Shown in pieces: positions 409 through 29,504 of a DNA stretch of 64,000 bases; position 1 is the stretch's first letter; the number at the start of each line of letters is the position of its first letter. Where the stretch lies: IMG/VR virus record IMGVR_UViG_3300045988_159113; one strand, 5' to 3'. Source of the DNA: a virus. The position numbers and the translations under genes were made by a program. Below the pieces are notes generated by a model, which saw only the letters and a program-made list of their open reading frames with translations, did not search any database and had not been told where the DNA came from.

Positions 409-409
409 G

Positions 410-9298: not shown

Positions 9299-9365
9299 TC
9301 TATTTTTTCGGCTTAGCGCTATTATTCTTAATGATGGCGATGGATTCAAATGATGACGACTGGGT

Positions 9366-9821: not shown

Positions 9822-9834
9822 GTAAGTATAAGAA

Positions 9835-10650
9835 ATGTTTAGCAAAACGCTGGTGGGACAAATTGCCCGAATCAGAAAAGGCTGCTCTCACTCGTCTGGG
9901 ATCAGTCAAGCAGCGGACAATATGATAACGTACCTGTTATTATCTAAGGATAGCAAGAGTTGCTACGCTTTAGATATAACATGGGAAAATGGGAAGACTT
10001 GTTGCCGGATGAATGTCGACACCATCGCAACAGATATGACAATAAATGAGGTAAGAGCTATCAACTCAATGATACGAGAGTGCGTTGAGGGTATGCTTTG
10101 TCCTGTTTCTGTTATAGAAACCACAATATATTTTGGAGGTCATGCTTATTTCATTCAGGACGGCATCATCTATCAGGATGATAAACAGTTTGTAGGTCCT
10201 TGGTTCAAGTTAGGTGATATGCTGAATGATTGGATGGAAAAGCGACCGTTCACTATTACTCCAAACGGCAACATGTTTCAACTTGTAGTTGGTGACACTT
10301 CGGAAGTCAAGGCGGCGAATAAGGTATGCATAAACGGATCGTTTTATAAAACCATCAACTTTGACCTTGCCAAGTCTCTCCCATGTTATACTAAGTTTAT
10401 GACATTCCAGATTCCGGAAAATGACGGTCGGTTTATTCCATATTGCCACAATAAGGTTGAACTCTTGCGTGTATTGCACAACATCAATAACTACGAAGAC
10501 GTAGATATGCGAGATTACAAATTCGAGAATGGCAAATGGGAGATAACAGAACGCGTGCTTTCGCGACTGTATGAAAGAGTCATCGGTTCTTCGGAAGTGT
10601 CAAATGTTGAAGACATCAAAAAAGTCATAAGATTTTTAGATAATGTTTAA
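9835..10650 (+). CDS. hypothetical protein, distant member (B1) of the GKW / G(V/I)(F/S)PE paralog superfamily
   Basis: C-terminus FENGKWEITERVLSRLYERVIGSSEVSNVEDIKKVIRFL parallels the array proteins and 10643..11470. Confidence 0.65.
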   Translation: MFSKTLVGQIARIRKGCSHSSGISQAADNMITYLLLSKDSKSCYALDITWENGKTCCRMNVDTIATDMTINEVRAINSMIRECVEGMLCPVSVIETTIYFGGHAYFIQDGIIYQDDKQFVGPWFKLGDMLNDWMEKRPFTITPNGNMFQLVVGDTSEVKAANKVCINGSFYKTINFDLAKSLPCYTKFMTFQIPENDGRFIPYCHNKVELLRVLHNINNYEDVDMRDYKFENGKWEITERVLSRLYERVIGSSEVSNVEDIKKVIRFLDNV

Positions 10651-11470
10651 GCTGTATCTATTATCTCAGGATAATACCGAGATGTACAATGCATACGTAA
10701 CCTTCAACAATGACAGAACTGACGTTAGAATTTATAGGTGTCAGAATGTGTTAAGCTTCGCCGAAGTTTTACAACACAATATAGAAGTCAAATGTCTTGA
10801 AAGGATACTGTGCCCTATTTACTTCTATGCCAATCATTGGATTTTTGGGGGCTATAATTATGAAATTTTACATGGTAATACTTATAAAGATAGAATCACT
10901 GGACCTCCCTGTTGGATGGCTGCACAGAACATAGCGACAGAAGCTTCTAAGTTTCTCGCCTCTCTCCCGATTCGCATAACAGCACAGAAGGTAGACTGGC
11001 CAGATGAACGCACTTTCTACTGCTTGAATATGATAGGGGCAGACGGGCGTGCAATAACTAGGACGTCATTTCCTGTTAAGTTAGCGAATGGTTATCTCAC
11101 TCTGGATTTTAAAATCCCAGGAGGATACGATGACCTTATCGAACTCTTCGATCTTAAACCTATGGATGACGGGATTATTCCAGCGTGCAAAGGAAAGGAT
11201 AAGCTCCACGCTCTGCTCAAAATATTAAACTCAAGAACTGAGCAAGATATTAAATGTTACCGTAAAGTGCTGACTAAACAGTTGAAGAATGGCAAGTGGA
11301 TCATTACCTCGCCAAATCCGCGTGATCTGATCGCTAGCGATATCTATAAACTGTATAGTGAGATTGTCGGCTATCCTGTGAAGAGGGGAATATCTCCTGA
11401 AGTAAACACCAAAGAAGATTTAGATAAAATTATCACATATTTAAAAGATGCCAAAATATTATCCCGGTAA
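10643..11470 (+). CDS. hypothetical protein, member (B2) of the GKW / G(V/I)(F/S)PE paralog superfamily
   Basis: C-terminus LKNGKWIITSP...IVGYPVKRGISPEVNTKEDLDKIITYLK. Same tail as 15886..16671. Confidence 0.7.
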   Translation: MFKLYLLSQDNTEMYNAYVTFNNDRTDVRIYRCQNVLSFAEVLQHNIEVKCLERILCPIYFYANHWIFGGYNYEILHGNTYKDRITGPPCWMAAQNIATEASKFLASLPIRITAQKVDWPDERTFYCLNMIGADGRAITRTSFPVKLANGYLTLDFKIPGGYDDLIELFDLKPMDDGIIPACKGKDKLHALLKILNSRTEQDIKCYRKVLTKQLKNGKWIITSPNPRDLIASDIYKLYSEIVGYPVKRGISPEVNTKEDLDKIITYLKDAKILSR

Positions 11471-11837: not shown

Positions 11838-11849
11838 AGTCAGATAATT

Positions 11850-12239: not shown

Positions 12240-12451
12240 AGTATTACGCAGGAGATAGAGTCTCGCAAACTTGGTTTGAGTGGTGTGTCCGCAGTTTGAG
12301 ATTTGGGTCTTGTAAACCTGAGTCTTGCCCAAACTGCAAGACATACCATGCAGCCAATGAGAAAGTCAAAAAATTGTTAAAAAGTTATATCAAAAGACAG
12401 TATGCAGGAAATGATTGTTTTGAACGGGAAGATGTTGAAAGAGGAAGCTGA
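12236..12451 (+). CDS. hypothetical Cys-rich small protein
   Basis: 71-aa ORF with GTGA/ATGA-type coupling. Contains C..C..C-type cysteines (SCKPESCPNCK). Confidence 0.5.
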   Translation: MKYYAGDRVSQTWFEWCVRSLRFGSCKPESCPNCKTYHAANEKVKKLLKSYIKRQYAGNDCFEREDVERGS

Positions 12452-13861: not shown

Positions 13862-14217
13862 AAGCAAAATATAAATATGGAGACATTGTTTCCTTTGAAC
13901 TTAATGGTGAAAAGATGCAGGGCATCGTGTACATAGTGGACCACAATGGCACGTTTGAACAAAGCACCTATCCATCTTATGACATTATGGTGAACCACAT
14001 GCTGTACAAGCACATCACGGAACCGTGTGTGTCTCTTGTTCTTGCTTCACCATTTCATAATGCCAGGTATGTGTTTGATGAGGATTTCGCTAATCGTCTC
14101 CTCTGTCTGGCTGAGAATGCTAAGGATAACTCAGTCTCAGGATTTGCTGACGAGATGATAGAAAAGGCAAAAGTCTTGATCGAGTACCAAAAACTCGCAA
14201 AGTATGGTGACCTGTAA
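13858..14217 (+). CDS. hypothetical protein
   Basis: ORF 13846..14217. The ATG at 13858 forms an ATGA overlap with the upstream stop. Confidence 0.55.
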   Translation: MKAKYKYGDIVSFELNGEKMQGIVYIVDHNGTFEQSTYPSYDIMVNHMLYKHITEPCVSLVLASPFHNARYVFDEDFANRLLCLAENAKDNSVSGFADEMIEKAKVLIEYQKLAKYGDL

Positions 14218-15064
14218 TTTTTATATCCCACTATCTGATACAAATAAATACCTCAGAATTGACTATCTCAATGCTCGTTATAGCGTAGTAGCCGGCACTA
14301 TTAATTTTGATCTTTTTAGTGCTATAAACAGGATAAATTTTACAAGTTATCAACATGACTATGGCATAGCTCCTATTATCTCCATAAACAAAAACGGAGA
14401 CGTTAAGATAGGCAACGAGATATTCAACAGTATCTGGCACAATGTGCCTGGCTCTGCCCGTCAGCTTTTTGGTTGGGAGTGGACAGATGAAAGGTTCGGT
14501 GAGTATATAGTGGAGAGAATACGTCAGCTAATTTTTATACCGGCTGGTTCTCGTGATGATTTCAGACTTTGGATTGGTGATAACAGTGGACGCGTGCGCA
14601 TTACTCATTTCATGGATAAGGTGACATTGATATCTATGGATGATGTTTATCTTTCTTGCATATGGAATCATTATCATATAGCACGGAAGGAGATATCGCG
14701 GATTATTGGCCATACATTTTCAGGCTATGTGTTTCCATTTTGTCCTTATGAAGAGACAGTCTACAAAATCATCAACTACATAAACGAGAACTATAAGTCA
14801 GGGACTACAATCTCTGCCTCTATTGATACAGTCACGATTGGCTGCAAACAGTACGAGATAAAGCAGACAAAGAAAGGTATGTATTACCTGGCGGATTTCC
14901 CTGCTGCCGAGCATCGCGTTCTTCTCAAGTCCTATATCATCGCCCTTTTTCCTGGAAAAAGATTCGTGGGAGTATTCCCAGAATTTGAGACAAAAACAGA
15001 ATTGTTAAAATTTATTAGCAGAATAAAAGATGATAGAAGATTTTCTGAAAAAAAAGATAGGTGA
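14204..15064 (+). CDS. tandem array member A1 (divergent), G(V/I)FPE-tail family
   Basis: EIKQTKKGMYYL...GKRFVGVFPEFETKTELLKFISRIKDD. Mid motif VYKIINYINENY. Confidence 0.7.
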   Translation: MVTCNFYIPLSDTNKYLRIDYLNARYSVVAGTINFDLFSAINRINFTSYQHDYGIAPIISINKNGDVKIGNEIFNSIWHNVPGSARQLFGWEWTDERFGEYIVERIRQLIFIPAGSRDDFRLWIGDNSGRVRITHFMDKVTLISMDDVYLSCIWNHYHIARKEISRIIGHTFSGYVFPFCPYEETVYKIINYINENYKSGTTISASIDTVTIGCKQYEIKQTKKGMYYLADFPAAEHRVLLKSYIIALFPGKRFVGVFPEFETKTELLKFISRIKDDRRFSEKKDR

Positions 15065-15917
15065 CATAACCGGCTTCGAGATATTCTTCAGATTTGGAGC
15101 CAGACTTTGGTTTCGATTTAATCTTATAACTGGGGAACATGAACTAGTCAATCGCGCTGATCATTGGGAAGATGCAAATGATTTTGCTATGCGATATTAC
15201 AAATATCGGTTCCTAGTAGATCCACCTATCCGCATCATTGGTGACAACAAGATACTGATGCCAAATTTCGAATACGACACAGAAAGGAAAAAGTACAAGA
15301 TAACACTGTACGATTGTGAAGAGCGAAGTTTTACAATCTATGGATTACTTGAACATCTACGTCGTCGTGTAAAGCGTCTTGTCTTTGTTCCTGTTCAATA
15401 TTGCCAGTTTATCATGAACTTTGGAAATCTTCATGTGATGGCTGAGATCACGGAAACTCCACGATGGTTTCAAATAGTGTGTGATAACGACATGATACCT
15501 AAGATGTTGGAATATTACAGGATAAGAGAAACACCGCCTAATGTTCAAATCGTGGATGGATCAATGATCATAGGCGAGACTCTAGAGGATATCCTGGAAT
15601 TTATTAATCAGGTAAACGCTAAGTGTTATAACATCGTAGATGTTGACATTCCAAATAAGGGCTTAACTTTCTCAATTGAAGACGATAACATTATCATCAA
15701 CGGAGAGAAGTTTGAGATCAGAAAAAGCAGGATGTCAAAGTTCTATGTGCGTGGATTTGATGAAAACACCAGTCATAAGATTGCGGAGTTTTTCAAGCAA
15801 CAATATCCAGACAAACGCACAACGGGAGTATTCCCGGAGTTTAAAACAAAAGAGGATTTAATAGATTTTATTTTGAAATTAAAAGATGACTCAAATATAT
15901 TTGAAAACATATCGTAG
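15030..15917 (+). CDS. tandem array member A2 (divergent)
   Basis: FEIRKSRMSKFYV...DKRTTGVFPEFKTKEDLIDFILKLKDD. Ends in TAG. Confidence 0.7.
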   Translation: MIEDFLKKKIGDITGFEIFFRFGARLWFRFNLITGEHELVNRADHWEDANDFAMRYYKYRFLVDPPIRIIGDNKILMPNFEYDTERKKYKITLYDCEERSFTIYGLLEHLRRRVKRLVFVPVQYCQFIMNFGNLHVMAEITETPRWFQIVCDNDMIPKMLEYYRIRETPPNVQIVDGSMIIGETLEDILEFINQVNAKCYNIVDVDIPNKGLTFSIEDDNIIINGEKFEIRKSRMSKFYVRGFDENTSHKIAEFFKQQYPDKRTTGVFPEFKTKEDLIDFILKLKDDSNIFENIS

Positions 15918-16671
15918 ATTACATGTCTATGATATAGAAACTGAAAAAGTCGAAATCTTCACTGGAAGGTTATCAGACGAGGTAACAATCCGAGAGGACG
16001 AAAACAGACTTGCACCAATCAGTCCCTATATTGAGAATGTTATATCTATCTTTGGTGTAAAGTGCGCCCTTGCTGTGAGTTATAGAACAAAGGACGGAAT
16101 GCGGATCAATGTACCTAGATCAAGTGCTCCGATCCGGTATCTATTCAATAAAACAGACGGCGATCCGTACATTAACACTATCGACTTTATCCGTAAGCTT
16201 CAGAGTATTTTAAAGTATTCGTCGAAGTATTACAAATTCATTGGCTCAACTTCCATGGTAGGAAATGGCCAGCAATTCTTCAATTTGGCTAACAAAGAAG
16301 ATATCAGATCAGCCAACATTAGGTACAACTATGACCAAATAAAAAATCCGTTCTGCAATTATATGCGGAAGAATTTGGTGAATGTATGGCTCGAGAGTAT
16401 ATCGGGTGCAATAGACAATCTTCATTTTAGGAATTTCATGACATGGTATATTCTGGAAGGAAATGTTCCTGAAGATCTGGAAATTGTCAAAACATGCCTC
16501 GGTATGTATTACATAAAATCACAGCGAGGAGTTGACCCATTCCAAGGCATACAAAACAAGTATGATTTTGTATCTGCAATTGTAGGATACAAAGTAAGAA
16601 AAGGCATCTCTCCAGAAGTGAGAACTGAAGAAGATGCCAAAGCAGTCATCGAACGTTTAAATTGTAGATAA
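15886..16671 (+). CDS. tandem array member A3 (divergent, GISPE variant)
   Basis: IVGYKVRKGISPEVRTEEDAKAVIERL matches the tail of 10643..11470. Confidence 0.7.
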   Translation: MTQIYLKTYRRLHVYDIETEKVEIFTGRLSDEVTIREDENRLAPISPYIENVISIFGVKCALAVSYRTKDGMRINVPRSSAPIRYLFNKTDGDPYINTIDFIRKLQSILKYSSKYYKFIGSTSMVGNGQQFFNLANKEDIRSANIRYNYDQIKNPFCNYMRKNLVNVWLESISGAIDNLHFRNFMTWYILEGNVPEDLEIVKTCLGMYYIKSQRGVDPFQGIQNKYDFVSAIVGYKVRKGISPEVRTEEDAKAVIERLNCR

Positions 16672-17603
16672 TGGGATTTTTTATAGCTTATAATAAAATT
16701 TACCTCGCAGAGAGTAACGGAAGGATTACCTCCCTCTTGAATATCGACGAGATAGATTTTCCGTGTACGTTCATAAATAACGAAGTGAATTCCTATGATG
16801 AACTCAAACAGGTATTGATAGATGAGAACACAAGCCGGTTCTTTCAATATCAGCGAACGATGGGACATAAGCCAGTTTTGGAAATTGCGACCACCAAAAA
16901 GCGTAGTAGGTTTACGATTTCGTTTTATGATCAAGTGATCTATGAGGAGTTTGAAGATGGAACTATTGCGGTTGCAAATAATCTAAGCAAGGCCGTTAGG
17001 GAAGTTTTGAATTCTTCAGATTCTATTTTCACAAAGTATCAAATACTCCTTGAGTTGTTGCCTATCAAAACGATAGGGAAATATATGTTCAGGATTGGGC
17101 GAAATGAAAATCTTAATCGTTCTATGAATGGTATGATTTACAGATACGGTGAAGCATTCTATCTTGTAGGCAGCAGGCTGACAGATTTTTTTGATGAGGC
17201 CGTTATCGCTCAGCTGCTTCTCAGAAATCAGCTCAACTATATTGACGACGGTATCTTTAAGTCCAAAATAGCCAGCGTCTACACCACAATATCTTTTATG
17301 GATTTTATCCGGGAACTCAATTCATCTATCTATCTTACCAATAGAGAAAAGATTGAATTGAACGGAGATCAAATCATATATGGAGACAATAAGCTTTCAA
17401 TTAAGCAATCCCCGACAAACAACAAGTGGTTCATCGCTGGTCCTTTTGATCTTATCCTTAACATGTTCGGAGCAGAAACTCGAGCTGAACTCGATGAATA
17501 TATCTCAAAACAGATAGGAAAGAAAAGAAGGAATGGTGTATTTCCAAATTGTGACTCAAGGGATGAAATAATAAAACTTGTAGAGTCATTACAAAATGAG
17601 TAA
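16671..17603 (+). CDS. tandem array member A4
   Basis: SIKQSPTNNKWFIAG...IGKKRRNGVFPNCDSRDEIIKLVESL. Confidence 0.75.
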   Translation: MGFFIAYNKIYLAESNGRITSLLNIDEIDFPCTFINNEVNSYDELKQVLIDENTSRFFQYQRTMGHKPVLEIATTKKRSRFTISFYDQVIYEEFEDGTIAVANNLSKAVREVLNSSDSIFTKYQILLELLPIKTIGKYMFRIGRNENLNRSMNGMIYRYGEAFYLVGSRLTDFFDEAVIAQLLLRNQLNYIDDGIFKSKIASVYTTISFMDFIRELNSSIYLTNREKIELNGDQIIYGDNKLSIKQSPTNNKWFIAGPFDLILNMFGAETRAELDEYISKQIGKKRRNGVFPNCDSRDEIIKLVESLQNE

Positions 17604-18609
17604 ATACAAATATTACATTTACGAAAATCTTTCAAGTAGACTTGTATGTCTTGATCTTATCATAGGAGCTTTCGTGTCTGATTTCGTTAATGTGTATAGC
17701 ATGCAAACTTGTCAGTACGAATTCAAAGATAAGAAATTTGAGACAGCTTATGAATTCCTATCTTATTTAAGACTTTTGAATTCTTCGACTGCTATGAATT
17801 ATGAGAATGATTTTGGAATCAGACCTCCGTATAAAGTAGATCAAAAAATCATCGGACCAAGACTTTATACATATTTTGAATTCAAAAGTTCGGCTGTAAG
17901 TTTTACACCATCTATAGTTCCAAATTTGCATCTAAATAAACCGATTGACAAATTCTTTGCAAATACAAAAGGCCAGCGTTTTGACATAGAGTATATGATA
18001 AAGTTGCATAACTTTCTCATTAACTCGATGGTTATAAGTCCATTGCTCAAAAGTGGCACCAACCAAGTTGGCACCTATCAATTTCTGATTAGGTATGCTG
18101 ATGGAAAAACTACGACTGCTATAATTAATCGCGGCGCATGCGAAAATCGTTGTTATCTTTACGCACATTGTATGGCTAATGAAGAGATTTTCAACTCTTA
18201 CAATATTCCAAAAAGAGAGATCTTAAAGATCTTAGAAGATGCCGGGTTTGAATGGCACGGAAGATGGCCTGAAACGAATATGCAAACCGTCTATAAGATC
18301 ATCGACTACATCAATCAGCACTACTATGCTTTTTGTTCATCTGTAGACGACGATTTTGTAGTTTCTGATTCTGGCATTTCATATTGCGGAATTATCTTCA
18401 AAATCAAGCAACATAGAAATGGTAAGTGGTATATCGACGGAGATATCACGAAAATCATTTCTATGTTTAAGATGCCAGACATAACAGAATTTAGGAATTT
18501 TATTAACAAAGTTCTTGGAAGAAAATTCAGAAAAGGAGTTTTTCCTGAATGCGACTCAAAGGAAGAAATTATAAAACTTTTAAATGAAATAACAAAATGT
18601 CCAACTTAA
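17596..18609 (+). CDS. tandem array member A5
   Basis: FGIRPPY; RFDIEYMIKLHNFLINSMVISP; WHGRWPETNMQTVYKIIDYIN; KIKQHRNGKWYIDGD; RKGVFPECDSKEEIIKLLNEI. Confidence 0.8.
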   Translation: MSKYKYYIYENLSSRLVCLDLIIGAFVSDFVNVYSMQTCQYEFKDKKFETAYEFLSYLRLLNSSTAMNYENDFGIRPPYKVDQKIIGPRLYTYFEFKSSAVSFTPSIVPNLHLNKPIDKFFANTKGQRFDIEYMIKLHNFLINSMVISPLLKSGTNQVGTYQFLIRYADGKTTTAIINRGACENRCYLYAHCMANEEIFNSYNIPKREILKILEDAGFEWHGRWPETNMQTVYKIIDYINQHYYAFCSSVDDDFVVSDSGISYCGIIFKIKQHRNGKWYIDGDITKIISMFKMPDITEFRNFINKVLGRKFRKGVFPECDSKEEIIKLLNEITKCPT

Positions 18610-19610
18610 TACCCGACTTAAAATACTGGTATTATTCCAAGAAATCTAAGCATCTCATCAAACTTGGGTTCTCGTCTACCGATGATTGGGCTATTACTCT
18701 TGTAAGTTTTCCGTTTACTTATTCAACACCTTGTGAGTTTTATAAGTTCGAAAATGAACGAGACCTTGTCTTCTTCTGCAACGGACACAACCGCGAAGTG
18801 GAGAAAAAGTACAATGAAATCTACAAGATCAAACCGCCATATAATCTTCGGACATTCCTGGATTATACGGGAGAGAATGTGGCATGCTTGTTCATTTATA
18901 AAGGGCGCGCGCTCGCGTTCAAGGATATGCAGTCTATACCAGATTTGAATAGGGCGTTTTGGAATCCAAAAGATGATGCACTTGTTTATGACTTCTTTAA
19001 AGAATGCGACGGCGAATTGTTTGATGTCGCTTTTCTCTTGAAGCTCCACAAATTCGCTTTGGAAAATATGATCTTTACACCCGAGATAACACTCAATGGC
19101 AAAGTAGATTTCAATGTCAAGGTTAAAAACCAAGTGTACCACGCAAGAGTTCAAGGTGGTTATTATCCAGGAAAGTCATATTTTCTTCACTTTTATAAGA
19201 TAAGTAATGATGTAGTCTTTAAGTATTATAAAATACCAGAAAAGACTATTTCAGACTTATTTTCTGTTAGAGAAGGATTATGGCCATACTCCGACGAGAA
19301 GACGCTTTACGCTATTATTGATTTCGTAAATGAATCAAGATACGCGAACTTTTTATCTCAGAAAATAAGCATCAAGGATAACGTCATCACTTGCCAGTTT
19401 GGAATGTTTACCATAGAACAGAACAAAAAGGGGAAGTGGTATCTCAAAGGAGACATCGATGGTATACTCCACATGTTCAATCTCGGCACTGCTGCTGAGT
19501 TAAAAGTATATGTGAACAATATTCTTGGTGTAAAAAGAAGAGCTGGCGTCTTCCCTGAGTGTGAGACGAAGGAGGAAGTTATAAAGCTTTTAAACAAGGT
19601 AACAGAATGA
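18597..19610 (+). CDS. tandem array member A6
   Basis: YKIKPPY; LHKFALENMIFTP; WPYSDEKTLYAIIDFVN; EQNKKGKWYLKGD; RAGVFPECETKEEVIKLLNKV. Confidence 0.8.
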   Translation: MSNLIPDLKYWYYSKKSKHLIKLGFSSTDDWAITLVSFPFTYSTPCEFYKFENERDLVFFCNGHNREVEKKYNEIYKIKPPYNLRTFLDYTGENVACLFIYKGRALAFKDMQSIPDLNRAFWNPKDDALVYDFFKECDGELFDVAFLLKLHKFALENMIFTPEITLNGKVDFNVKVKNQVYHARVQGGYYPGKSYFLHFYKISNDVVFKYYKIPEKTISDLFSVREGLWPYSDEKTLYAIIDFVNESRYANFLSQKISIKDNVITCQFGMFTIEQNKKGKWYLKGDIDGILHMFNLGTAAELKVYVNNILGVKRRAGVFPECETKEEVIKLLNKVTE

Positions 19611-20617
19611 ATACATTAAAATACTGGTATTATTCCAAGAAGCAAAAGACATTTGCTTTTCTTGGATTCCCGTCTATTGATGATTCACATATCTCACGTG
19701 TACAATTTCCAATTACTATTTCTGATTCTTCTGGGCCTCACAGGTTCACTAACGAGAATGCACTTGTTTCTTATTGTGCTGAGCACAACCGACAAGTAGA
19801 GAAAGAGTACGAGGAAACATTCAAAATAGAACCTCCATATCTCTTACAGCCATATATTGATTACGATGGCAGTATGACGTATTATGTTTATTACAGAGAT
19901 CGTGAGCTTGTATTTGAAGATATGCATGTCATTCCTAAGCTTAACAAAGACATTTGGAATACTGTGGAAGATGCTCCTATTTACGAATTTCTTAGAAGGC
20001 ATCGCGGTCAACTGTTTGATTCTGCGATGATGACACAGTTTCACAAGTTCGCGCTGGCGAATGAAGTGTTCTCTCCATGTCATGCGACCTTTGGACGTGT
20101 TAGGTTTGCAGTGAAGCTAGGGGATCGCATAAGTATTGCAGAAGTTTGTGGACGTCTTAGCAGAGAAGACCCTTGCTTCTTGAACTTTGACAGCAAAGCA
20201 GAGTCAAACAAAGAGGTTTTCGAGTATTACAACATATCACGAGAATATCTTTCCAATCTCTTCCACATCGATACAACAGGAGATTGGCCGTACTCTGCAA
20301 AACAAACAGTGTATGACATCATCAATTACATAAACAGTACAAAATACGCGAACTGTTCGATACCTCAGGGAATAATTATTCAAGGCAATGTTGTCAAGTA
20401 TCAATCTGCAACATTTACCATAGAGCAAACTAAAAACTCAAAGTGGTATTTGTGCGGTGATATTAATAGCATCCTTGAAATGTTCGGGCTCGATAGCAAA
20501 GATAAGCTAAGAACATATGTGAATAGTATTCTCGGAGAGAAGAAAAGATCCGGAATCTTTCCTGAATGTGAAACAAGAGAGGAAATCAAGAAACTCATAA
20601 CATCAATAACAACATGA
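19607..20617 (+). CDS. tandem array member A7
   Basis: FKIEPPY; FHKFALANEVFSP; WPYSAKQTVYDIINYIN; EQTKNSKWYLCGD; RSGIFPECETREEIKKLITSI. Confidence 0.8.
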   Translation: MNTLKYWYYSKKQKTFAFLGFPSIDDSHISRVQFPITISDSSGPHRFTNENALVSYCAEHNRQVEKEYEETFKIEPPYLLQPYIDYDGSMTYYVYYRDRELVFEDMHVIPKLNKDIWNTVEDAPIYEFLRRHRGQLFDSAMMTQFHKFALANEVFSPCHATFGRVRFAVKLGDRISIAEVCGRLSREDPCFLNFDSKAESNKEVFEYYNISREYLSNLFHIDTTGDWPYSAKQTVYDIINYINSTKYANCSIPQGIIIQGNVVKYQSATFTIEQTKNSKWYLCGDINSILEMFGLDSKDKLRTYVNSILGEKKRSGIFPECETREEIKKLITSITT

Positions 20618-21624
20618 ACAATTTTGCATATTATGTATATAACGACATCAATAATTGTGTTTATAGTCTTGATCTTTTAAGTGAGACAGTAACCAAGTCG
20701 CTTGATTTTTGGATTAATACTCATACTGGATATCATTTTTTCCATGAAATATTTAATTCAAAACCCGAGCTTTTGAGATGTCTGAATGATATGAATCAGG
20801 CAACGGCTAATTCATACACTAGGACATTTTTGATAGATCCGCCGTATTACGTAAAGCAGTCATGGCAGCCAGTAACGAACATATTGTCAACTCGTATAAC
20901 AGCCTATAATATGACCTGTACATTCATTGCAGAAGGAGGAGGTCCTACTGGTTGTGAAAATGGCACGGAGTTCGAGAAGTTTCTTTTTATGAATAGAGAA
21001 AAGCGTTTCGATATTTATTATCTTGCACGCATTCATAAGTTTCTTATCAAATCTAAAATTGTTAGACCAGTTGTGAATGATGGGAGAGCCTTGCCTAGGT
21101 TAATTGACGATATACTGTTCAATGTTGCCCTTGGTACTGGTGATACAACAACAGCAAAGATTGATAAATTCAGTGGGTTTTTCCTCAACCTCAAAGGTTG
21201 TACTAATGACCAGATCTTCAAGACTTACGGAATAGAAAAAGCAAGTCTTCAAAGATTCCTGACTAAGCCAATGGTCGCTACTCAGTATTGGCCAGAGGAC
21301 ACGCTGGATTCATTGGCTAAGATTATCAACTATATCAACAACAACTTCTACGCTTTTTGCGGTCCGAAAACAACATTGTCAATTTCTGGTAATGAAATTA
21401 TGTTTTTCGGAACTTCTCTTTTCGTTTCACAATTGAAGAATGGGAAGTGGTACATCAAAGGTGATATGGAAAAGATATGTCAGCTGTTTGGTGTATCCAC
21501 TTGTGTAGAGCTTAGGCGTTTTGTTGATAGAACACTTGGGGAGAAAATACGCCATGGTATATTTCCCGAGTGTGATTCGAGAGATGAGATTTTTAAATTA
21601 CTAGATAAAGTGAAAAATGTCTGA
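20614..21624 (+). CDS. tandem array member A8
   Basis: FLIDPPY; IHKFLIKSKIVRP; YWPEDTLDSLAKIINYIN; SQLKNGKWYIKGD; RHGIFPECDSRDEIFKLLDKV. Confidence 0.8.
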   Translation: MNNFAYYVYNDINNCVYSLDLLSETVTKSLDFWINTHTGYHFFHEIFNSKPELLRCLNDMNQATANSYTRTFLIDPPYYVKQSWQPVTNILSTRITAYNMTCTFIAEGGGPTGCENGTEFEKFLFMNREKRFDIYYLARIHKFLIKSKIVRPVVNDGRALPRLIDDILFNVALGTGDTTTAKIDKFSGFFLNLKGCTNDQIFKTYGIEKASLQRFLTKPMVATQYWPEDTLDSLAKIINYINNNFYAFCGPKTTLSISGNEIMFFGTSLFVSQLKNGKWYIKGDMEKICQLFGVSTCVELRRFVDRTLGEKIRHGIFPECDSRDEIFKLLDKVKNV

Positions 21625-22600
21625 TTTAAAATATCTATATTATTCAATTAAACAAGGGAAGCTTCTAGCTCTTTATCTTGAAGATGGAAAGTTTGACCTT
21701 TACCCTGTAAGATTTCCGTTTGAATTTGAATCGAAAACTTTTTCTGGTCCAACTGGACTTGTTCTTTTTTGTGAAAGTTATAACAAAACAACAGCGAAGA
21801 AGTACAGGAAGCTTTACGGAATCAAACCACCATATGTTCTTCATACTTATATTGGTATCGGAGGAGAAGTTGTGTGTTTATTTACTTTTCACGGGAACAA
21901 ATTGTCTGTTACTGATGGATTGGACTTTCCAAAATTAAACACTACAATTTGGAATCAGGAAATTGATGCGCCACTTGATAACTTCTGCAAACAACACCAA
22001 GACAAAATGTTCAACTTGTCGGCAGTGATTGCATTTCACAGGTTCTTCATTGATAGCATGGTTATCGCACCGATAGGTCCCGGCTATTTTAATGCAAAAC
22101 TTGACGGGATTATTTATCATACTGAGATAAGAGCAGATTCAGATTTTTGGTATCTGTATTTTTCAAATTCTCTATCAAACGATCATATCTTTGAGTATTA
22201 TAATATACCAAAAGATGAAGTTTTGGAAGTGATAAACCAAAAGCATTGGGCTGGGGCTTGGCCAGAGTCAAGTAAAGAAAACCTGTTCAAACTTATTGAT
22301 TATATCAACAGAAGGTACTATGCAAATTTTGTATACGAGAGTTTTAAGATCACGGAAAATTCTATCGTGTCCAATTTTGGATGTTTGGATTTCAAGCAGA
22401 ACAAGAAGAGTGGCGGCTGGTTCCTATCCGGGAATATGAATGTCATTCTCGCTTTGTTCAAACTTGAATCTATAGGAGATTTGAAAGCTCGTGCGAATGA
22501 AATTCTCGGAAAACAAAAACGAAGTGGTATTTTCCCAGAATGTGATTCGAAAACAGAACTCATTGCACTCATAAAAACAATTAAAGATGAACGCAGATAA
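21617..22600 (+). CDS. tandem array member A9
   Basis: YGIKPPY; FHRFFIDSMVIAP; AWPESSKENLFKLIDYIN; KQNKKSGGWFLSGN; RSGIFPECDSKTELIALIKTI. Confidence 0.8.
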   Translation: MSDLKYLYYSIKQGKLLALYLEDGKFDLYPVRFPFEFESKTFSGPTGLVLFCESYNKTTAKKYRKLYGIKPPYVLHTYIGIGGEVVCLFTFHGNKLSVTDGLDFPKLNTTIWNQEIDAPLDNFCKQHQDKMFNLSAVIAFHRFFIDSMVIAPIGPGYFNAKLDGIIYHTEIRADSDFWYLYFSNSLSNDHIFEYYNIPKDEVLEVINQKHWAGAWPESSKENLFKLIDYINRRYYANFVYESFKITENSIVSNFGCLDFKQNKKSGGWFLSGNMNVILALFKLESIGDLKARANEILGKQKRSGIFPECDSKTELIALIKTIKDERR

Positions 22601-23564
22601 TGTATATTATCTTTTCTATGATCAGGTAAATCAAGAATTGATAAAGCTGGATCTGTTGGAACTTTCTGACTTACCAAACAAAACATGTTTCGTAACTTTC
22701 CCGTTTGTGCTCAATGGTAAATATGCGCACAATGGTCATGACTTGGTTAACTTAATTAACGAGTATAACGGAAGAGTCTATAACAGGTATCAGGATGAGT
22801 ACAAGATCAAACCGCCGTATTTCATAAAATGTGCATATAATCAAATCGGACGTGTTGATGTTTCCATATTCTACAAGAAAAAACATTTCTTGTTTTATGA
22901 TAATAAGATAAGCAATCCTGACGATTATCCTATTATTGATTCTTTCGTTTCCAAGCATAAGTCTCTACCATTCTGCGGTGTCTATATGAAGAAACTTCAT
23001 GAGTTCATTATGGATAACCAAATCGTGCGCCCAAATCCAAAACCAGGAGGCATTTATTTCAATGTTGTGATAAAGGGCAAGATTTACAAGGCTTATATTT
23101 GTAAAGAAAGTACCGATCATTGTTTTCTCTCTTTCCCATTAACAGGAAACAGATATGCCTTTGATTGTTATAATATAAGCGAGGAAGAAGTGTTGAATGT
23201 TCTTGGTATCAATGAGTGGCAAGGTGATTGGCCTGAAACACCAGAAAGAAAAGTGTATGTTCTGCTTGATTATATCAACGAGAACCGTATGGCTGGACCT
23301 GTTATCGACAGGTTAAAGATAGACGGCAATAAGATCATCACATCTTTTGCTGAGTTCGAGATAAAGCAAACGAAGACTGGCAAGTGGTATATTCGGGGAA
23401 ATATTGAGCAGATATGCTTGTTGTTTAAAGTTCCTAATATTACGGAACTCAAACATCTTGTCAACAAGATAATTGGCAACAAGATACGGCACGGTGTCTT
23501 TCCGGAATGTGATTCGAGAGAAGAGGTCACGAAACTTTTAAAATCAATTAGAGATGACAGATAA
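22587..23564 (+). CDS. tandem array member A10
   Basis: YKIKPPY; LHEFIMDNQIVRP; DWPETPERKVYVLLDYIN; KQTKTGKWYIRGN; RHGVFPECDSREEVTKLLKSI. Confidence 0.8.
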   Translation: MNADNVYYLFYDQVNQELIKLDLLELSDLPNKTCFVTFPFVLNGKYAHNGHDLVNLINEYNGRVYNRYQDEYKIKPPYFIKCAYNQIGRVDVSIFYKKKHFLFYDNKISNPDDYPIIDSFVSKHKSLPFCGVYMKKLHEFIMDNQIVRPNPKPGGIYFNVVIKGKIYKAYICKESTDHCFLSFPLTGNRYAFDCYNISEEEVLNVLGINEWQGDWPETPERKVYVLLDYINENRMAGPVIDRLKIDGNKIITSFAEFEIKQTKTGKWYIRGNIEQICLLFKVPNITELKHLVNKIIGNKIRHGVFPECDSREEVTKLLKSIRDDR

Positions 23565-24513
23565 GTTTTATTATCTTTTTTATGACCGTATAAACGGAAA
23601 GATAATCAGATTAGATTTGTTTAACGCTAACCTATCAATAGGCGAAGCCGTTTCTGTGATGTTTCCATGGGCAATTGATGGGAGGCTTACACATAATGAT
23701 GGCGAAGTAGTGATGGCGATCAACAAACACAACCAAAGAACATATAAACGATATATTGAGAAGTTTAAAATCAGACCTCCGTACTATATCGAAAATGTGC
23801 TCGGCGTTCGTGGTATGATCAATGCTATTGTTACTTACAAAAGTAGGTCACTTTTGCTTAAAGAGTACATGCTTGTCGACAAGTATAATGATGTCGCTCC
23901 ATTCTTTGCTAAATATGACTATGCGAAGTTTAACATCTGTTATATGATAGGGCTTCACAAGTATATCTTGGACAATCAGATCATACGTCCTAGCAAACAT
24001 AATAGCGGAATGTTTAGCGTCATGATACTTGGTAAAAGCTATATCGCGAATGTTGTAGTTTCACTAGATCATTGCTTCCTTAACATAGAAGGTATATCAA
24101 ACGGAGCAGTCTTCAATCATTATAAAATAGGTAAATCAAAAGTCCTTGAAGTACTCAGGATAGACAAATGGTACGGAGACTGGCCAGAGACTACCGAAGA
24201 CAAGGTGTACGAGTTAATCAACTATATCAACGAGTGCAGAAGCTCAAGCACTAATCCTGATAAAGTTGAGATAAGCGGAAATGAAATCATCACAGATTTT
24301 GCTAGACTTGAAATAAAGCAAAGCAAAAATGGTAAATGGTATATCAGTGGCTCGCTCGAGAATATATTGAAATTGTTTCATATTGACGACCAAGTCGAGT
24401 TGAAGCAAATGGTCAATAACCTTTTCGGATCTAAGCGACGCGCTGGTGTATTCCCTGAACTTGATTCTCGTGATGATGTTATTAAACTAATCAAAGTAAC
24501 GCAACATGAATAG
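23554..24513 (+). CDS. tandem array member A11
   Basis: FKIRPPY; LHKYILDNQIIRP; DWPETTEDKVYELINYIN; KQSKNGKWYISGS; RAGVFPELDSRDDVIKLIKV. Ends in TAG. Confidence 0.8.
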   Translation: MTDKFYYLFYDRINGKIIRLDLFNANLSIGEAVSVMFPWAIDGRLTHNDGEVVMAINKHNQRTYKRYIEKFKIRPPYYIENVLGVRGMINAIVTYKSRSLLLKEYMLVDKYNDVAPFFAKYDYAKFNICYMIGLHKYILDNQIIRPSKHNSGMFSVMILGKSYIANVVVSLDHCFLNIEGISNGAVFNHYKIGKSKVLEVLRIDKWYGDWPETTEDKVYELINYINECRSSSTNPDKVEISGNEIITDFARLEIKQSKNGKWYISGSLENILKLFHIDDQVELKQMVNNLFGSKRRAGVFPELDSRDDVIKLIKVTQHE

Positions 24514-25558
24514 AGAAACTGATTTCTTTTATCTATTTTACAATAGAACCAACAAATACTTGGTACAGTTGGATCTGTTGAGTAATTACTCGGAGAATAT
24601 ATCTTGTCGAACAGTAGATGGCGATAAGTACAAGCTGTATGGCAAGTATTTCAAAGCAGAGGATGAGTTTATCCAAGCTGTTAATGATTTCAATGTGTCG
24701 ATGGCTCAAAAGTATTTTAGCAAGTTCAAGATTCTTGCACCGTATAGATTAGAGTGTCAGCTCTTATTCTATATAGACGGAGGGGCAGACTACAACATAT
24801 ACATCTCAACACATGACAGATGCTATCGTTTCATTTATGGCAAGGAAACGCCTGCAAACTTTATAGAATTTGCACGTATCCGCAATATAGAGCCGGGGAC
24901 TTTCAATCTTCGCTATATGCTGAACCTACATACTGCACTTTTGAACTCTGCAGTGTTCAGGGCTGGATATGACAGGGGCAAGTTCTGTTATACTGTAAAC
25001 TGTGGAGAAAATTCTTTCTGTGCTCATATCGCGAAGTCAAGAGTAAGAGCTGGCTGTTATTTCCTAGCCTTTAGTCCTAATATTCCGAATGACTACGTCT
25101 TCGCGTATTACAACGTCAATAGGCAAAACATCAAGGATCTCTTGACTGTAGACTCCTGGACCGGAAAGTGGCCCGAGGATGTCGAGTCGACAATCTACGC
25201 GATCATGCAGTATATGAACAGAACATATATCGCAAATGCCAATTTTAGTTTTGTAATAGATGATGATGCTGTCATGTTCAACGGTACCAGATACCCATTC
25301 AAACAAGCAAAGAAGGGAGGCTGGTTCTTGTCTGGCAATATTGAGAAGATACTTCAGATGTTCGGTCTTGATAGTGTCGACTCATTACGTAAGACAGCGA
25401 ACCTATATCTTGGAGCAAAGAACAGACCGGGAGTTTTCCCAGAATGCGACACAAAAGAAGAGTTGATAAACTTGATTAAAATGTTCAAAGATGGAGAGCG
25501 AAAAATCAAAATTTCCGGTTCTTCTGTACTTCGATCCATGCAGCCGGATGATCTATAA
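24506..25558 (+). CDS. tandem array member A12 (C-terminal extension overlapping A13 by 68 nt)
   Basis: FKILAPY; LHTALLNSAVFRA; KWPEDVESTIYAIMQYMN; KQAKKGGWFLSGN; RPGVFPECDTKEELINLIKMF. An extra 20-odd residues follow the point where the other members stop. Confidence 0.8.
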   Translation: MNRETDFFYLFYNRTNKYLVQLDLLSNYSENISCRTVDGDKYKLYGKYFKAEDEFIQAVNDFNVSMAQKYFSKFKILAPYRLECQLLFYIDGGADYNIYISTHDRCYRFIYGKETPANFIEFARIRNIEPGTFNLRYMLNLHTALLNSAVFRAGYDRGKFCYTVNCGENSFCAHIAKSRVRAGCYFLAFSPNIPNDYVFAYYNVNRQNIKDLLTVDSWTGKWPEDVESTIYAIMQYMNRTYIANANFSFVIDDDAVMFNGTRYPFKQAKKGGWFLSGNIEKILQMFGLDSVDSLRKTANLYLGAKNRPGVFPECDTKEELINLIKMFKDGERKIKISGSSVLRSMQPDDL

Positions 25559-26510
25559 GTTCCCGCTTATCTGGACAACGGACATAGAACACTTGAAGTT
25601 CGAGATACTTATTGAAGAACTCGGATCAAGTACTGTATGGTTTCGTGGTATGAAATATGAGAACACGGAGGAACTCCTGCGTTTTATATCCAAAGAGAAC
25701 GAGAAGACGCGTAAAAAGTATAAAGAGAAATATGGCATTTTTCCGCCATATGTTATTACTCAATGTACTTTTAACACGACTTATTCAATTTGTATTAGAA
25801 CGCACAATTGCGAAAACTATGCTGTGTTTTTATTTGAAGATGGGGAAAAGCTTCCTGAGTGTATTGCAAATGGAGAAGTTCCTGTTTTTCGCAATGCAGA
25901 AATTAAAGCTAGCGATAGGTTTAATATTAAAACACTCATCAAGTTGCATAACTCCATCGTCTCAAATTATGTAGTACGTCCTGCGATTTATTTGGATTGT
26001 TGTGATAGGTATGTTGCAAAAATAAACGGCACGCTTTATGATGCTAGGATTGTTAGAGTTGCTGATAATACTTTCTATTTACAGTTTTTCACGATTCCCA
26101 GCATAAAACTTTTTAAGTATTATGACATAAAGTTTACAGAATACGAGCCTATCATATCTCATGACTTCCGTTTGATGGATGGCTATATCCCTGTGGATAA
26201 TAAAGAGCACATCCTAAAAATTCTTGACTTCATCAATAGTAAGCGCTGTGCTATGGAGTATGCATCGTTTACTATCAAAAGCGATACTATCCTAAGTAAT
26301 GGATGTATGTTCAAGATAGTCCAAACGCCAACTGGCAAGTGGTACATAAAGGGTAAGAGTGACGACTTCCCTAAGGTGTTCAAGTGCTCAAGTATGGAGG
26401 AGATCAGAGAGTTTGCGATCAAGCTATTCGGGCGAAGGATTACTGGAGTATTCCCAGAGTGCAACACCAGGGAAGAGTTGTTAACTTTAATCGAGAAGAT
26501 GAAGAAATGA
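25491..26510 (+). CDS. tandem array member A13
   Basis: YGIFPPY; LHNSIVSNYVVRP; IPVDNKEHILKILDFIN; VQTPTGKWYIKGK; ITGVFPECNTREELLTLIEKM. Confidence 0.8.
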   Translation: MESEKSKFPVLLYFDPCSRMIYKFPLIWTTDIEHLKFEILIEELGSSTVWFRGMKYENTEELLRFISKENEKTRKKYKEKYGIFPPYVITQCTFNTTYSICIRTHNCENYAVFLFEDGEKLPECIANGEVPVFRNAEIKASDRFNIKTLIKLHNSIVSNYVVRPAIYLDCCDRYVAKINGTLYDARIVRVADNTFYLQFFTIPSIKLFKYYDIKFTEYEPIISHDFRLMDGYIPVDNKEHILKILDFINSKRCAMEYASFTIKSDTILSNGCMFKIVQTPTGKWYIKGKSDDFPKVFKCSSMEEIREFAIKLFGRRITGVFPECNTREELLTLIEKMKK

Positions 26511-27532
26511 TAATCCAACTTTTAGAAGAACCGACTTATCTATACTTTGACCAGATGGTGATGAAAGTCTACCAGCTGCCAATAATGCATACGATACAGT
26601 TGTCGGCTGTTGAAGTTTACAACGTACGACATCCTCAAGGCATCATGTCAATGCGCGAACGAGAAGTTGACCTATGGTTTCGAGATGCGCATTACAACAC
26701 GATCGGTGATCTCTTGAAGTATATAAACAAGAGAAACGAGAGAATGTTCAAATATTACGTTGAGAAATTCGGAATTTCTCCTGCTTACTTTTTGGACCAA
26801 GAAGCTGATGCGGATAATGTAGTCATTACCACTATTGTAACACATCTCGATTCTTACCGTTTTGAATGTGATGGTCGGATAGATTATGAAATAATAGAGA
26901 AGACTATTCCCGTTTTCAGTTATGCAGACATCAAAGAAGATGACCGTTTTGGCGCAGAAGTTCTGGTGAAGATGCACAACTCCATCATCAAAAACCAGGT
27001 GATAAAACCCACCATATACAAGAACGTTTACACCGTAAGAATGGGCGATTTGTTTGCAAAAGCAAAAATCGATACGATGGATATAGGTAGGGTGCCTGGC
27101 TATCATTTGCATTTTCTATCTTATCATGATAGGATTGTTTTTGATTATTACCACATACGATATTCTGACTTTGCTTATGTGATCCCTGATACCGAATTGA
27201 GTAACGGGATACCTGTTGGCCCAGAAGAAGATATCAGAAAGCTCATCAACTATATCAATATGACATATTGCGTTTGTGAGGGCTCAAAGTTTAGTGTGAA
27301 TGATAATATTATCATCTGCAATAAGCACAAGCTTGAAATTACACAAACGCGAAACGGCAAATGGTATATCAAGGGTGATGTTTTACTCGCTTTTGGGTTG
27401 GATAGTATGGAGGCAATCAGAAAGGCTGCGTCTGATCTCTTCGGTAAAAAGAGGATGAACGGAGTATTCCCGGAATGCGATTCCAAGGAAGACCTCCTGC
27501 GACTCGTTGAAGTTCTTAGAAAATACAGGTGA
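26507..27532 (+). CDS. tandem array member A14 (last)
   Basis: Start set at the ATG at 26507 (ATGA overlap; MIIQLLEEPTYLYFDQ matches the N-termini of A10-A13). FGISPAY; MHNSIIKNQVIKP; TQTRNGKWYIKGD; MNGVFPECDSKEDLLRLVEVL. Confidence 0.8.
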   Translation: MIIQLLEEPTYLYFDQMVMKVYQLPIMHTIQLSAVEVYNVRHPQGIMSMREREVDLWFRDAHYNTIGDLLKYINKRNERMFKYYVEKFGISPAYFLDQEADADNVVITTIVTHLDSYRFECDGRIDYEIIEKTIPVFSYADIKEDDRFGAEVLVKMHNSIIKNQVIKPTIYKNVYTVRMGDLFAKAKIDTMDIGRVPGYHLHFLSYHDRIVFDYYHIRYSDFAYVIPDTELSNGIPVGPEEDIRKLINYINMTYCVCEGSKFSVNDNIIICNKHKLEITQTRNGKWYIKGDVLLAFGLDSMEAIRKAASDLFGKKRMNGVFPECDSKEDLLRLVEVLRKYR

Positions 27533-27759: not shown

Positions 27760-28437
27760 ATGGTACGAGACATTTTTATCAAAACATGTGAGGATGGTAT
27801 CGATGATTTGATATCAATCCCCGATACAGCGGAAATATATGAACAGTTCCAATATGCCGATGGATCCTTTGAGTATATAATCGTTGACGATTACAACAGC
27901 GAGAATATATCCCAAATGATGAAATACCGCAACGATTATGATGTTATATCTTACAATAACACATACGTCATGATCATTGTTAACGCCATCGATATCACAG
28001 GGTGCGATATAAAGAAGGAACAGTTCAAATTTCCAACTGCCTATGTTCGGTTTTATAAAGAGAATCCGCACATATGGGAACTAGCAAAAGGGCGGTTTGG
28101 TGTTGACCTGTCAGGGATGGATGAGTACACGGACGATCAGCTGGAGTTTCTAAAAGACAACGTTACATTTAATATTGCCTTTATGAAAATCAGGAAATCT
28201 TCCGATGTGCATTTCCTCGTTGATAAGGTACACATAAAAACAAAAAGCGGATCTCCAAAGTTCGCTGTAGAGTATAAGAAGATTGGGTTTTGTTCCGCTT
28301 TCGATACTCAGTACGATCTGACCGGGGTTTCAAATAAGGCTGACACTGTCTATTCTGAATTTTGCACAAAAGAAGAATATGATGATGCGCTATGCCGAGT
28401 GTTAACAGTCTTGGGAGTTAAGAAGTTTGAGGTATGA
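27760..28437 (+). CDS. hypothetical protein
   Basis: 225-aa ORF. It is the first gene after the 228-nt gap that follows the array. Confidence 0.6.
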   Translation: MVRDIFIKTCEDGIDDLISIPDTAEIYEQFQYADGSFEYIIVDDYNSENISQMMKYRNDYDVISYNNTYVMIIVNAIDITGCDIKKEQFKFPTAYVRFYKENPHIWELAKGRFGVDLSGMDEYTDDQLEFLKDNVTFNIAFMKIRKSSDVHFLVDKVHIKTKSGSPKFAVEYKKIGFCSAFDTQYDLTGVSNKADTVYSEFCTKEEYDDALCRVLTVLGVKKFEV

Positions 28438-28802: not shown

Positions 28803-28893
28803 CATACTTGAACCAACAGACAACACGGCCGTTGTAAAAGATCCATATTACGACGAACCGATGGCAATGTTGGATAGAATAAAACAAGAATGA
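28681..28893 (+). CDS. small conserved phage protein with P.LRFGQ motif
   Basis: LEKYPSLRFGQALINLNIL...DPYYDEP resembles a recurrent ~70-aa phage/bacterial family of unknown function, recognised from memory only. Confidence 0.55.
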   Translation: MSEKNLIEQRQEANLRLLEIIQDYLEKYPSLRFGQALINLNILEPTDNTAVVKDPYYDEPMAMLDRIKQE

Positions 28894-29504
28894 AAGTATA
28901 TCGAATACAACAGAAGAATTTTAATTCCATAACGCAGTCAACACTTAGTGTAGAAGATGGGACGAAGTTTCAATTTATACCAACAGGAAAAGAGGACATG
29001 TACAATGTCGCCTATATCACTGATGGCAGTAAAGAGAACGTCATAAGGTGTAAAAGATTAGTGAACTCTTTTCAGTTTCTACTTCCTTATGATAAGCTCC
29101 TTATCATTCTCAAGGACTTCATGGGCAAGCCGTTCGAGGAATCGACGGAGATAAAGATCAATGATTTCTATCTCTCTTGTTTCCCAAAGGGGCATCCAGA
29201 AAGACCGCTTGAGTTCTATCATGTGCTTGACTTTACAGGAACCGCGTTCAAGGTAATACGTGTAAGGATAACGGATCCATTAAACAAGATATATAATCCT
29301 CGGATTGAGTACACAACAATCGCACCGCTTACTTTGTTCAGAAGCCAGACGGGAATAGCTAGAGGTCCAGAGACTGCGCTGTTTACTGACTTCATGAAAA
29401 AAGAAGATTTCGAGCGTTATATGGATATCATAACTCTTACACTGAAAGGAGACACCAATCGTTTAATGACAAATGAAATACTTTACAATTCAGGAGCTGA
29501 CTAA
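28890..29504 (+). CDS. hypothetical protein
   Basis: 204-aa ORF with ATGA coupling. Confidence 0.6.
   Translation: MKVYRIQQKNFNSITQSTLSVEDGTKFQFIPTGKEDMYNVAYITDGSKENVIRCKRLVNSFQFLLPYDKLLIILKDFMGKPFEESTEIKINDFYLSCFPKGHPERPLEFYHVLDFTGTAFKVIRVRITDPLNKIYNPRIEYTTIAPLTLFRSQTGIARGPETALFTDFMKKEDFERYMDIITLTLKGDTNRLMTNEILYNSGAD

Follow-up and report, generated by a model that had tools for sequence, protein, structure and literature searches.

A tandem array of diverged paralogs with a duplicated GxFPE module in an uncultured phage and its possible role at the host interface

Why would a phage encode the same kind of protein many times over, in a row and in widely diverged versions? This question is raised by a locus on the IMG/VR virus record IMGVR_UViG_3300045988_159113, from which a stretch of 64,000 nucleotides (called the window in the following) was analyzed. 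Between positions 14204 and 27532 of this window, 14 open reading frames (ORFs; A1 to A14) of 261–350 amino acids (aa) follow one another on the + strand, and together with two outlying genes further upstream (U1 and U2) they form a family of 16 members that amounts to about 15 kb (Table 1). The array is genuine and its genes are intact, its proteins are built on a repeated module of ca. 85 aa without described relatives, and individual copies evolve quickly and come and go between related phages. We tentatively read these proteins as soluble, non-catalytic binders that combine a constant docking module with variable surfaces and that would serve host takeover or counter-defense.

An overlapping run of intact, ancient paralogs

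All long ORFs of the window are found on one strand. Within the array, each of the 13 junctions between neighboring genes is an overlap (35, 32, 1, 8, 13, 4, 4, 8, 14, 11, 8, 68, and 4 nt, from A1/A2 to A13/A14), in agreement with a first-pass annotation of the same DNA that had described 14 overlapping same-strand ORFs of this size range with no intergenic space. The largest of these overlaps, between A12 and A13, shrinks from 68 to 11 nt if A13 starts at position 25548 as in an independent gene call, while A14 could begin at ATG 26507 (341 aa), which overlaps the stop codon of A13 by 4 nt, or at the upstream GTG 26384 (382 aa). Since no intergenic space is left, the members are probably transcribed as one overlapping operon.

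Pairwise protein identity among the 16 paralogs is 19–46%, and A1–A4 are the most divergent members (17–21% identity to A5), as had already been apparent on first inspection. Genes that are each other's closest relatives sit side by side (U1–U2 with 31% identity, A6–A7 with 46%, A10–A11 with 43%, and A13–A14 with 35%), which is a signature of serial tandem duplication, and the family grew in this way long ago. The two upstream members (9835..11470) proposed by the first-pass annotation could be substantiated. U2 is recognized with ease by a hidden Markov model (HMM) of the module described below (E = 1.9e-16), whereas U1 is weak against this HMM (E of about 0.01) and was linked to the family by its BLASTP similarity to U2 (24% identity over 277 aa, E < 1e-5); its ortholog in related phages is 92–93% identical. 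Searching all six-frame ORFs of the window with the module HMMs revealed no members beyond these 16. Two ORFs at 27760–28437 and 28890–29504 have faintly similar tails, yet they were not accepted as members because they lack any match to the module HMMs.

A trivial explanation for such an array would be an assembly artefact or a collection of decaying or neutral duplicates without function, and related contigs indeed often break in or near this region while some relatives carry an occasional frameshifted copy. We consider this explanation extremely improbable and effectively refuted. DNA repeats within the array do not exceed 84 nt at 60–78% identity, with a longest exact repeat of 26 nt, and such short and imperfect repeats, together with paralog identities of no more than 46%, make collapse or expansion by an assembler implausible. 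Moreover, the same layout is present on a 142-kb contig from another run, and colinear arrays in the same order are found on independent contigs of different samples and assemblers, some of them 196–198 kb long. Each of the 16 ORFs is intact, and the ratio of nonsynonymous to synonymous substitution rates (dN/dS, from pairwise Nei-Gojobori estimates) is below 1 in every slot and every domain, with values of 0.17–0.37 by domain where pseudogenes would be expected near 1. The array is thus not an assembly artefact and its genes are not decaying, and the first-pass annotation was right to call the copies intact.

A repeated module without described relatives

To understand how these proteins are built, we used alignments of the 16 members and of 42 sequences that include metagenomic orthologs, and A10 was modeled by AlphaFold2 on the latter. 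The resulting model is confident and compact (predicted local distance difference test score [pLDDT] of 86.9, predicted template modeling score [pTM] of 0.73) and comprises four units, each made of a beta-meander followed by helices (Table 1). Units 3 and 4 are two tandem copies of one module of ca. 85 aa (M3 versus M4 with hhalign: probability 88%, E = 2.9e-6), and in distant proteins the HMMs of both copies match the same regions. Units 1 and 2 resemble neither the module nor one another (hhalign probability ≤2%), which leaves the idea that they are degenerate module copies (M1 and M2) unsupported, and they are confined to this family. By HMM, two module copies are present in A1 and A5–A14 and at least one in U2, A2, A3, and A4. 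Each member appears to carry an N-terminal alpha/beta region that is specific to this lineage, with two modules in tandem behind it.

The module is predicted to fold into a four-strand beta-meander and three helices with a “GxFPE(C)” turn, and the last copy modeled separately again gave a confident result (pLDDT 87.1, pTM 0.74). We recognize this GxFPE module by an aromatic “G(K)W(Y/F)(I/L)” strand in the beta-meander, an “ND.IF” helix start, and a “(L)G(Y)...G.(F/W)PE” stretch that precedes a helix with acidic residues, all of which are seen in the family of the window. In distant proteins it forms a repeat unit of ca. 85–90 aa with the consensus “..Y.V....G.WYL....ND.IF..LGI....F...VLGY...G.FPEC.SLEDL.KLI.AL”. 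Two to six such units occur in tandem in P0151 (618 aa), P0177, P0173, P0186, P0187, P0175, and P0168, while P0183, P0189, and P0170 are single-unit proteins of 97–132 aa; the repeats of P0151, P0177, P0175, and others align with the copies in the window. The last module of A3 is nearest to U2 (55% local identity) and to proteins of other phages that consist of one module, and the type of last module seen in U2, “IVGY..RGISPEV.TKED”, is found in distant phages as well. As a separate observation, P0164, P0173, P0177, P0186, and an ORF at 7723–9624 of contig L014 combine the GxFPE module with SH3-like “GDxVxI...W” repeats (weak matches to Pfam SH3_15) and share a C-terminal tail of the form “(I/V)(I/V)IKV(P/R)(K/S)I”.

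These results refine the earlier picture of the family. The four collinear motif blocks reported at first are all visible in both alignments, and the conserved tail is there too, but what is conserved is not limited to the last ca. 25 residues and comprises the whole module, which is present twice. The suggestion of a constant handle on a variable body broadly holds, with the last of two tandem modules as the handle.

What is conserved in the family does not look like an active site. The (nearly) invariant residues are only N, P, F, G, P, E, Y, and W, i.e., of a fold-determining type, and the conserved features are aromatic core residues, Gly/Pro turns, and a helix-capping S/T-x-E-E. A1–A3, A11, and U2 have F, V, or L in place of the FPEC cysteine, and no conserved His/Asp/Lys/Ser/Cys constellation is present in the alignments, so we read the members as non-catalytic. 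Neither a signal peptide nor a transmembrane segment was evident when the translations were read by eye, with no predictor run, and the net charge of the members ranges from −6 to +7.

In line with the first impression of an unrecognized family, no member has a significant match in Pfam-A, PHROGs v4, NCBIfam 20, or PADLOC 2.0. The best chance-level match was Glyco_hydro_85 (E = 0.0014, below cutoff), and the distant module proteins gave nothing significant against the family libraries, with only faint matches of their module core to two PHROGs that are both without assigned function (phrog_35704, E = 2.3e-5; phrog_12208, E = 0.0075). Among PDB sequences, neither full-length, module, and N-terminal profiles nor two distant multidomain proteins found a significant match; the best full-length score was E = 0.022 (the chain of a receptor-YFP fusion), the N-terminal part gave nothing at all, and a similarity of the module to the DHX15 C-terminus (E = 0.32) was taken as chance. 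Foldseek likewise returned no match at E ≤ 0.001 for the full-length A10 model in PDB and BFVD or for the single module in PDB. Its best scores were E = 0.085 (PDB) and E = 0.0065 (BFVD) for the full length and E = 0.8 (PDB) for the module, and all matches had a probability of ≤0.23 and a TM-score of ≤0.3. The model units do resemble SH2, AP2/ERF, and PUR domains in that each is a short beta-meander followed by helices, but the order of secondary-structure elements differs from that of SH2, and membership in any of these three groups was rejected because their top Foldseek ranks were non-significant and no Pfam match accompanied them. A DNA-binding module of the AP2/ERF or NUMOD type was discarded, too, in view of the absence of AP2 in Pfam matches, a NUMOD-like match in one paralog only (E = 0.049), a probability of ≤0.12 for AP2/HNH proteins in BFVD, and the near-neutral charge.

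The distribution of the family is correspondingly narrow. When 1.84 billion protein cluster representatives were searched exhaustively by HMM, only 77 matched at E ≤ 0.001, and no relative was found in the genomes of 185,579 bacterial and archaeal species (one genome each). A word-indexed protein search with the module alignment gave a single match, and a previous list of matches was left out of conclusions on diversity in view of its bias toward A5-like sequences. Among GenBank phages, the array DNA has no megablast match and two distant module proteins have no tblastn match, while IMG/VR contains six loci on five contigs that all come from one data set. Other carriers of the module sit on phage-like metagenomic contigs in unidirectional runs of small unannotated ORFs, which are typical of phage accessory regions. 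No account of the family turned up in the literature searched. The family is therefore rare and, as far as can be seen, restricted to uncultured viruses.

Evolutionary rate and turnover among related phages

Slot by slot, we compared the array across nine related loci, in which the main array has 12–14 copies. Most slots are one-to-one orthologous, even in the L005 lineage at ca. 50% identity. The array slots have dN/dS values of 0.10–0.53 against their orthologs, compared with 0.01–0.13, in the same genome pairs, for five or six genes that flank the array (95–99% identity), and at comparable dS the array accumulates amino acid changes ca. 3–5 times faster than these neighbors. Every copy is kept under purifying, comparatively weak constraint.

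Averaged over slots A5–A14, variability between orthologs peaks in the beta-sheets of unit 2 (residues 81–110) and unit 3 (residues 151–190) and is lowest in the last module, with 0.08–0.09 around “GKWYI” and “GVFPEC”. The first-pass annotation was therefore right to place the variability upstream of the conserved tail, but it is concentrated in these mid-protein sheets and not spread over the whole N-terminal half. The last copy, M4, is accordingly the constant part of the protein, and the mid-protein beta-sheets are its variable part.

Individual slots are dispensable and exchangeable between phages. A8 is absent from L002–L004, A7 from L010, A10 from L011/L012, and A11 from L005. In addition, an A6/A7 chimera replaces two genes in L003, A6 is frameshifted in L011/L012, U2 is split by a frameshift in L002–L004, and L005 carries two A5-like genes. 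More distant relatives (L017–L019) have arrays of shorter members of 250–300 aa. The A5 slot is always the most divergent one (89, 74, 71, 67, and 45% identity versus 77–97% in neighboring slots), and its dS is raised along with its dN (e.g., 0.51 versus about 0.1–0.2, or 2.5 versus 0.14–0.47), with omega at 0.18–0.41. Faster protein evolution than the genomic background is thus seen together with a turnover of copies and alleles, and the initial comparison to gene families shaped by arms races has held up in the sense that the pattern fits an arms-race or accessory family.

Possible roles and genomic surroundings

A constant module, variable surfaces, a hypervariable slot, and the presence or absence of individual slots are what one would expect of proteins that meet variable host factors, and rapid evolution combined with the gain, loss, and swap of slots suggests, without proving it, a role in host interaction. 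The reading that we favor, if only tentatively, is that the array encodes soluble non-catalytic binders for host takeover or counter-defense. All paralogs would attach to a common partner through the constant module, and each would owe its own specificity toward variable host targets to the variable surfaces. Directly observed are the anatomy of the proteins, the way in which the family evolves, and the lack of catalytic signatures, whereas we infer the binding function, the targets, and the timing of expression.

Several points weigh against this interpretation. The homology searches link no member to a target, a defense system, or early expression, and scans for sigma-70 promoters and terminators were uninformative. 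No gene-wide positive selection was found, and a partly redundant family under relaxed constraint would show the same dN/dS values. The raised dS of A5 points to old alleles or recombinational replacement rather than a burst of adaptive substitution, which suggests old allelic lineages or cassette-like recombination at one position of the array. The one-to-one orthology at ca. 50% identity would also fit 14 distinct housekeeping roles of the phage. Finally, cell-wall hydrolases bracket the region, with a glucosaminidase at 9366–9821 that has an N-terminal hydrophobic segment and an M15 peptidase at about 29.5–29.9 kb (annotated at 18860–19315 on the identical contig L001), and the neighborhood is therefore not purely “early”.

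The same hydrolases near the array would suit an unlikely alternative, namely that the members are internal head proteins that are packaged and ejected, with the C-terminal module as incorporation domain and the variable parts as cargo; such a function can overlap with a role in counter-defense. Phage phiKZ encodes a family of paralogous head proteins (gp92–97, 153, 162, and 163) with a shared C-terminal domain, PF12699, of which some are injected and several tolerate transposon insertions (PMC12676376). The array shares this architecture of a large-phage tandem family whose members diverge in their N-terminal parts but keep a conserved C-terminal domain, and here as well individual slots are dispensable. 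However, it has 16 members instead of 9, it adjoins a sigma factor gene and replication genes instead of head genes, and its conserved part is an internally duplicated module of ca. 85 aa. None of the 16 members matches PF12699 even at E ≤ 0.1 to 1 (hmmscan, Pfam-A) or any virion family in Pfam and PHROGs, and in place of structural genes, of which none were seen, the window contains genes for a sigma factor, replication, and nucleotide metabolism. Another precedent are the internal proteins IPI, IPII, and IPIII of phage T4, hyperplastic loci of high turnover in which a shared targeting segment is combined with variable bodies and of which at least one member, IPI*, counters a host restriction system. 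The shared segment of these proteins is a short capsid-targeting peptide at the N-terminus, which is removed by cleavage, whereas the constant part of the array proteins is a C-terminal domain whose conserved tail is modeled as a folded helix of a globular module and not as a linear targeting peptide; the array proteins are also larger (260–350 aa) and far more numerous.

It is also conceivable, though in our view quite unlikely, that the paralogs serve the biology of the phage itself as differentiated subunits or regulators with a distinct housekeeping role for each slot, e.g., in a hetero-oligomeric scaffold or compartment or as sequence-specific nucleic acid binders. The orthology of most slots across lineages would make sense in this case, and the overlapping genes would favor coordinated, roughly equimolar synthesis. 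The top Foldseek matches are tandem small alpha/beta binding domains (tandem SH2, AP2/HNH-endonuclease proteins, and Pur-alpha), and A8 has a faint I-HmuI NUMOD-like match (E = 0.049, 13.6 bits versus a cutoff of 27), but all these structural and profile matches are non-significant and the proteins have no basic surface signature. Slot loss, fusion, and frameshifts in close relatives are hard to square with an obligatory multi-subunit machine, and the faster evolution of the family compared with its flanking genes argues against such housekeeping roles as well.

Non-enzymatic binders with constant and variable parts, as in the reading that we favor, have parallels elsewhere. The “genomic accordions” of poxviruses and giant viruses, i.e., arrays of ankyrin, BTB, or F-box-like genes, combine constant docking with variable recognition, vary in copy number between strains, and are tied to conflicts over host range and immune evasion. 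They resemble the array as large tandem expansions with copy-number variation, but they belong to eukaryotic viruses and have known repeat folds and partners such as cullins, and the duplications here are all ancient (≤46% identity) and not recent amplifications. Immunity arrays of polymorphic toxins similarly line up diverged same-strand paralogs of small non-catalytic binders with turnover between strains. These arrays are located in bacterial chromosomes beside toxin genes, whereas no toxin gene is adjacent here and the family is absent from the bacterial and archaeal genomes searched.

A more specific version of the binder hypothesis, which we regard as improbable, is that the array is a library of target-recognition adaptors whose shared M4 plugs into a single effector machine. 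This machine might be the product of a gene cluster a few kb downstream of the array at 30978–36811 (ATP-grasp protein, an unannotated ORF, C26 peptidase/glutamine amidotransferase [GATase], phiEco32-type COOH-NH2 ligase, class-II GATase, and amidoligase), and each variable beta-sheet surface would then steer it to a different host protein or defense system. If true, this would be a counterpart, in a prokaryotic virus and on a previously unseen fold, to the F-box or BTB receptor expansions known from eukaryotes and giant viruses. The cluster itself looks like a peptide- or metabolite-ligase system, and its peptidase, ligase, and amidoligase genes stay downstream of the array in the distant lineage L018.

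Tandem families that join constant and variable parts are a known kind of gene family in large viruses, tandem multigene families have been described in a few large phages, and no new mechanism is demonstrated here. The array is set apart by the lack of any relation to a described family or fold, by its internally repeated module, and by its size. Sixteen intact ancient paralogs over ca. 15 kb are of unusual scale for genomes with longest related contigs of ca. 197 kb. The array could thus be an entry point to the host-range and counter-defense biology of an uncultured clade of large phages, and the GxFPE module adds a new building block to phage dark matter, one that can now be searched for and tested.

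Table 1. Positions of the array members, the parts of the modeled protein A10, and other paralogous genes in the window
Feature	Position	Strand	Length	Basis or remark
U1	9835..10650	+	271 aa	outlying, most degenerate member; BLASTP to U2, weak module HMM
U2	10643..11470	+	275 aa	outlying member; module HMM
A1	14204..15064	+	286 aa	short form; alignment, module HMM; dN/dS 0.20–0.42 versus orthologs
A2	15030..15917	+	295 aa	short form; alignment, module HMM
A3	15886..16671	+	261 aa	short form; alignment, module HMM
A4	16671..17603	+	310 aa	most constrained slot, dN/dS 0.12–0.21
A5	17596..18609	+	337 aa	hypervariable slot; ortholog comparison
A6	18597..19610	+	337 aa	46% identity to A7
A7	19607..20617	+	336 aa	ORF listing
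A8	20614..21624	+	336 aa	ORF listing, gene call
A9	21617..22600	+	327 aa	ORF listing
A10	22587..23564	+	325 aa	modeled member; AlphaFold2
A10 N-terminal domains	22587–23021	+		residues 1–145
A10 module copy 1 (M3)	23022–23300	+		residues 146–238
A10 module copy 2 (M4)	23301–23561	+		residues 239–325
A10 unit 1	strands 7–47, helix 50–72			residues; model
A10 unit 2	strands 79–104, helices 115–143			residues; model
A10 unit 3	strands 147–182, helices 190–233			residues; model
A10 unit 4	strands 244–270, helices 273–323			residues; model
A11	23554..24513	+	319 aa	43% identity to A10
A12	24506..25558	+	350 aa	C-terminal extension of ~20 aa; ORF listing, alignment
A13	25491..26510	+	339 aa from 25491, or 320 aa from ATG 25548	ORF listing, gene call
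A14	26507..27532	+	341 aa from ATG 26507	ORF open from GTG 26384; ORF listing
Paralog pair	94–408, 625–1281			
Three hexapeptide/beta-solenoid proteins	1689–2468, 2456–3337, 5395–6252			
Three proteins of ~190 aa	3642–5398			
Paralog pair	7048–7584, 7665–8261			
Two 129-aa proteins	11448–11837, 11850–12239		129 aa	67% identical

The array has the sigma factor gene on one side and the replication module on the other, all in the same orientation. Upstream of it are beta-solenoid (hexapeptide) paralogs, a factor of the sigma-70 family, and the glucosaminidase, while helicases, DnaB, primase, a fusion of N6-methyltransferase and specificity domains, NrdD, a Dda-like helicase, and DNA polymerase are encoded farther downstream of the ligase cluster. 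The DNA polymerase is no more than 30% identical to that of any GenBank phage. Two genes of the sigma-70 family (6374–7051 and 60291–61043) are 38% identical over 73 aa, and the phage probably redirects host RNA polymerase in stages. In the fusion protein (810 aa, 48396–50828), the domain attached to the N6 DNA methyltransferase is an HsdS-like specificity domain of type I, and this protein could act as a self-protective methylase.

Shine-Dalgarno-like motifs were seen ahead of just 5 of the 57 starts, and the leaders are A-rich. Together with the NrdD gene (54439–56544), this scarcity suggests that the host is probably an anaerobe that does not rely on Shine-Dalgarno sequences, e.g., a member of the Bacteroidota. 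Neither a Bacteroidetes-type promoter pattern nor a candidate A-rich leader motif stood out, as they did not exceed chance or did not recur, and scans of the window for tRNAs and Rfam families gave no match.

Related contigs tend to end close to the array, with a contig end 6–19 kb upstream of A1 in 9 of 10 cases (33–198 kb; L001–L012) and a break within the array, at A3, in the tenth (197,477 bp). Such clustering is far from random and reflects either a physical genome end or strain heterogeneity and repeats that break assemblies. In addition, five further small families of tandem paralogs lie within positions 1–12300 (Table 1), and the first 12 kb of the window are duplication-prone throughout.

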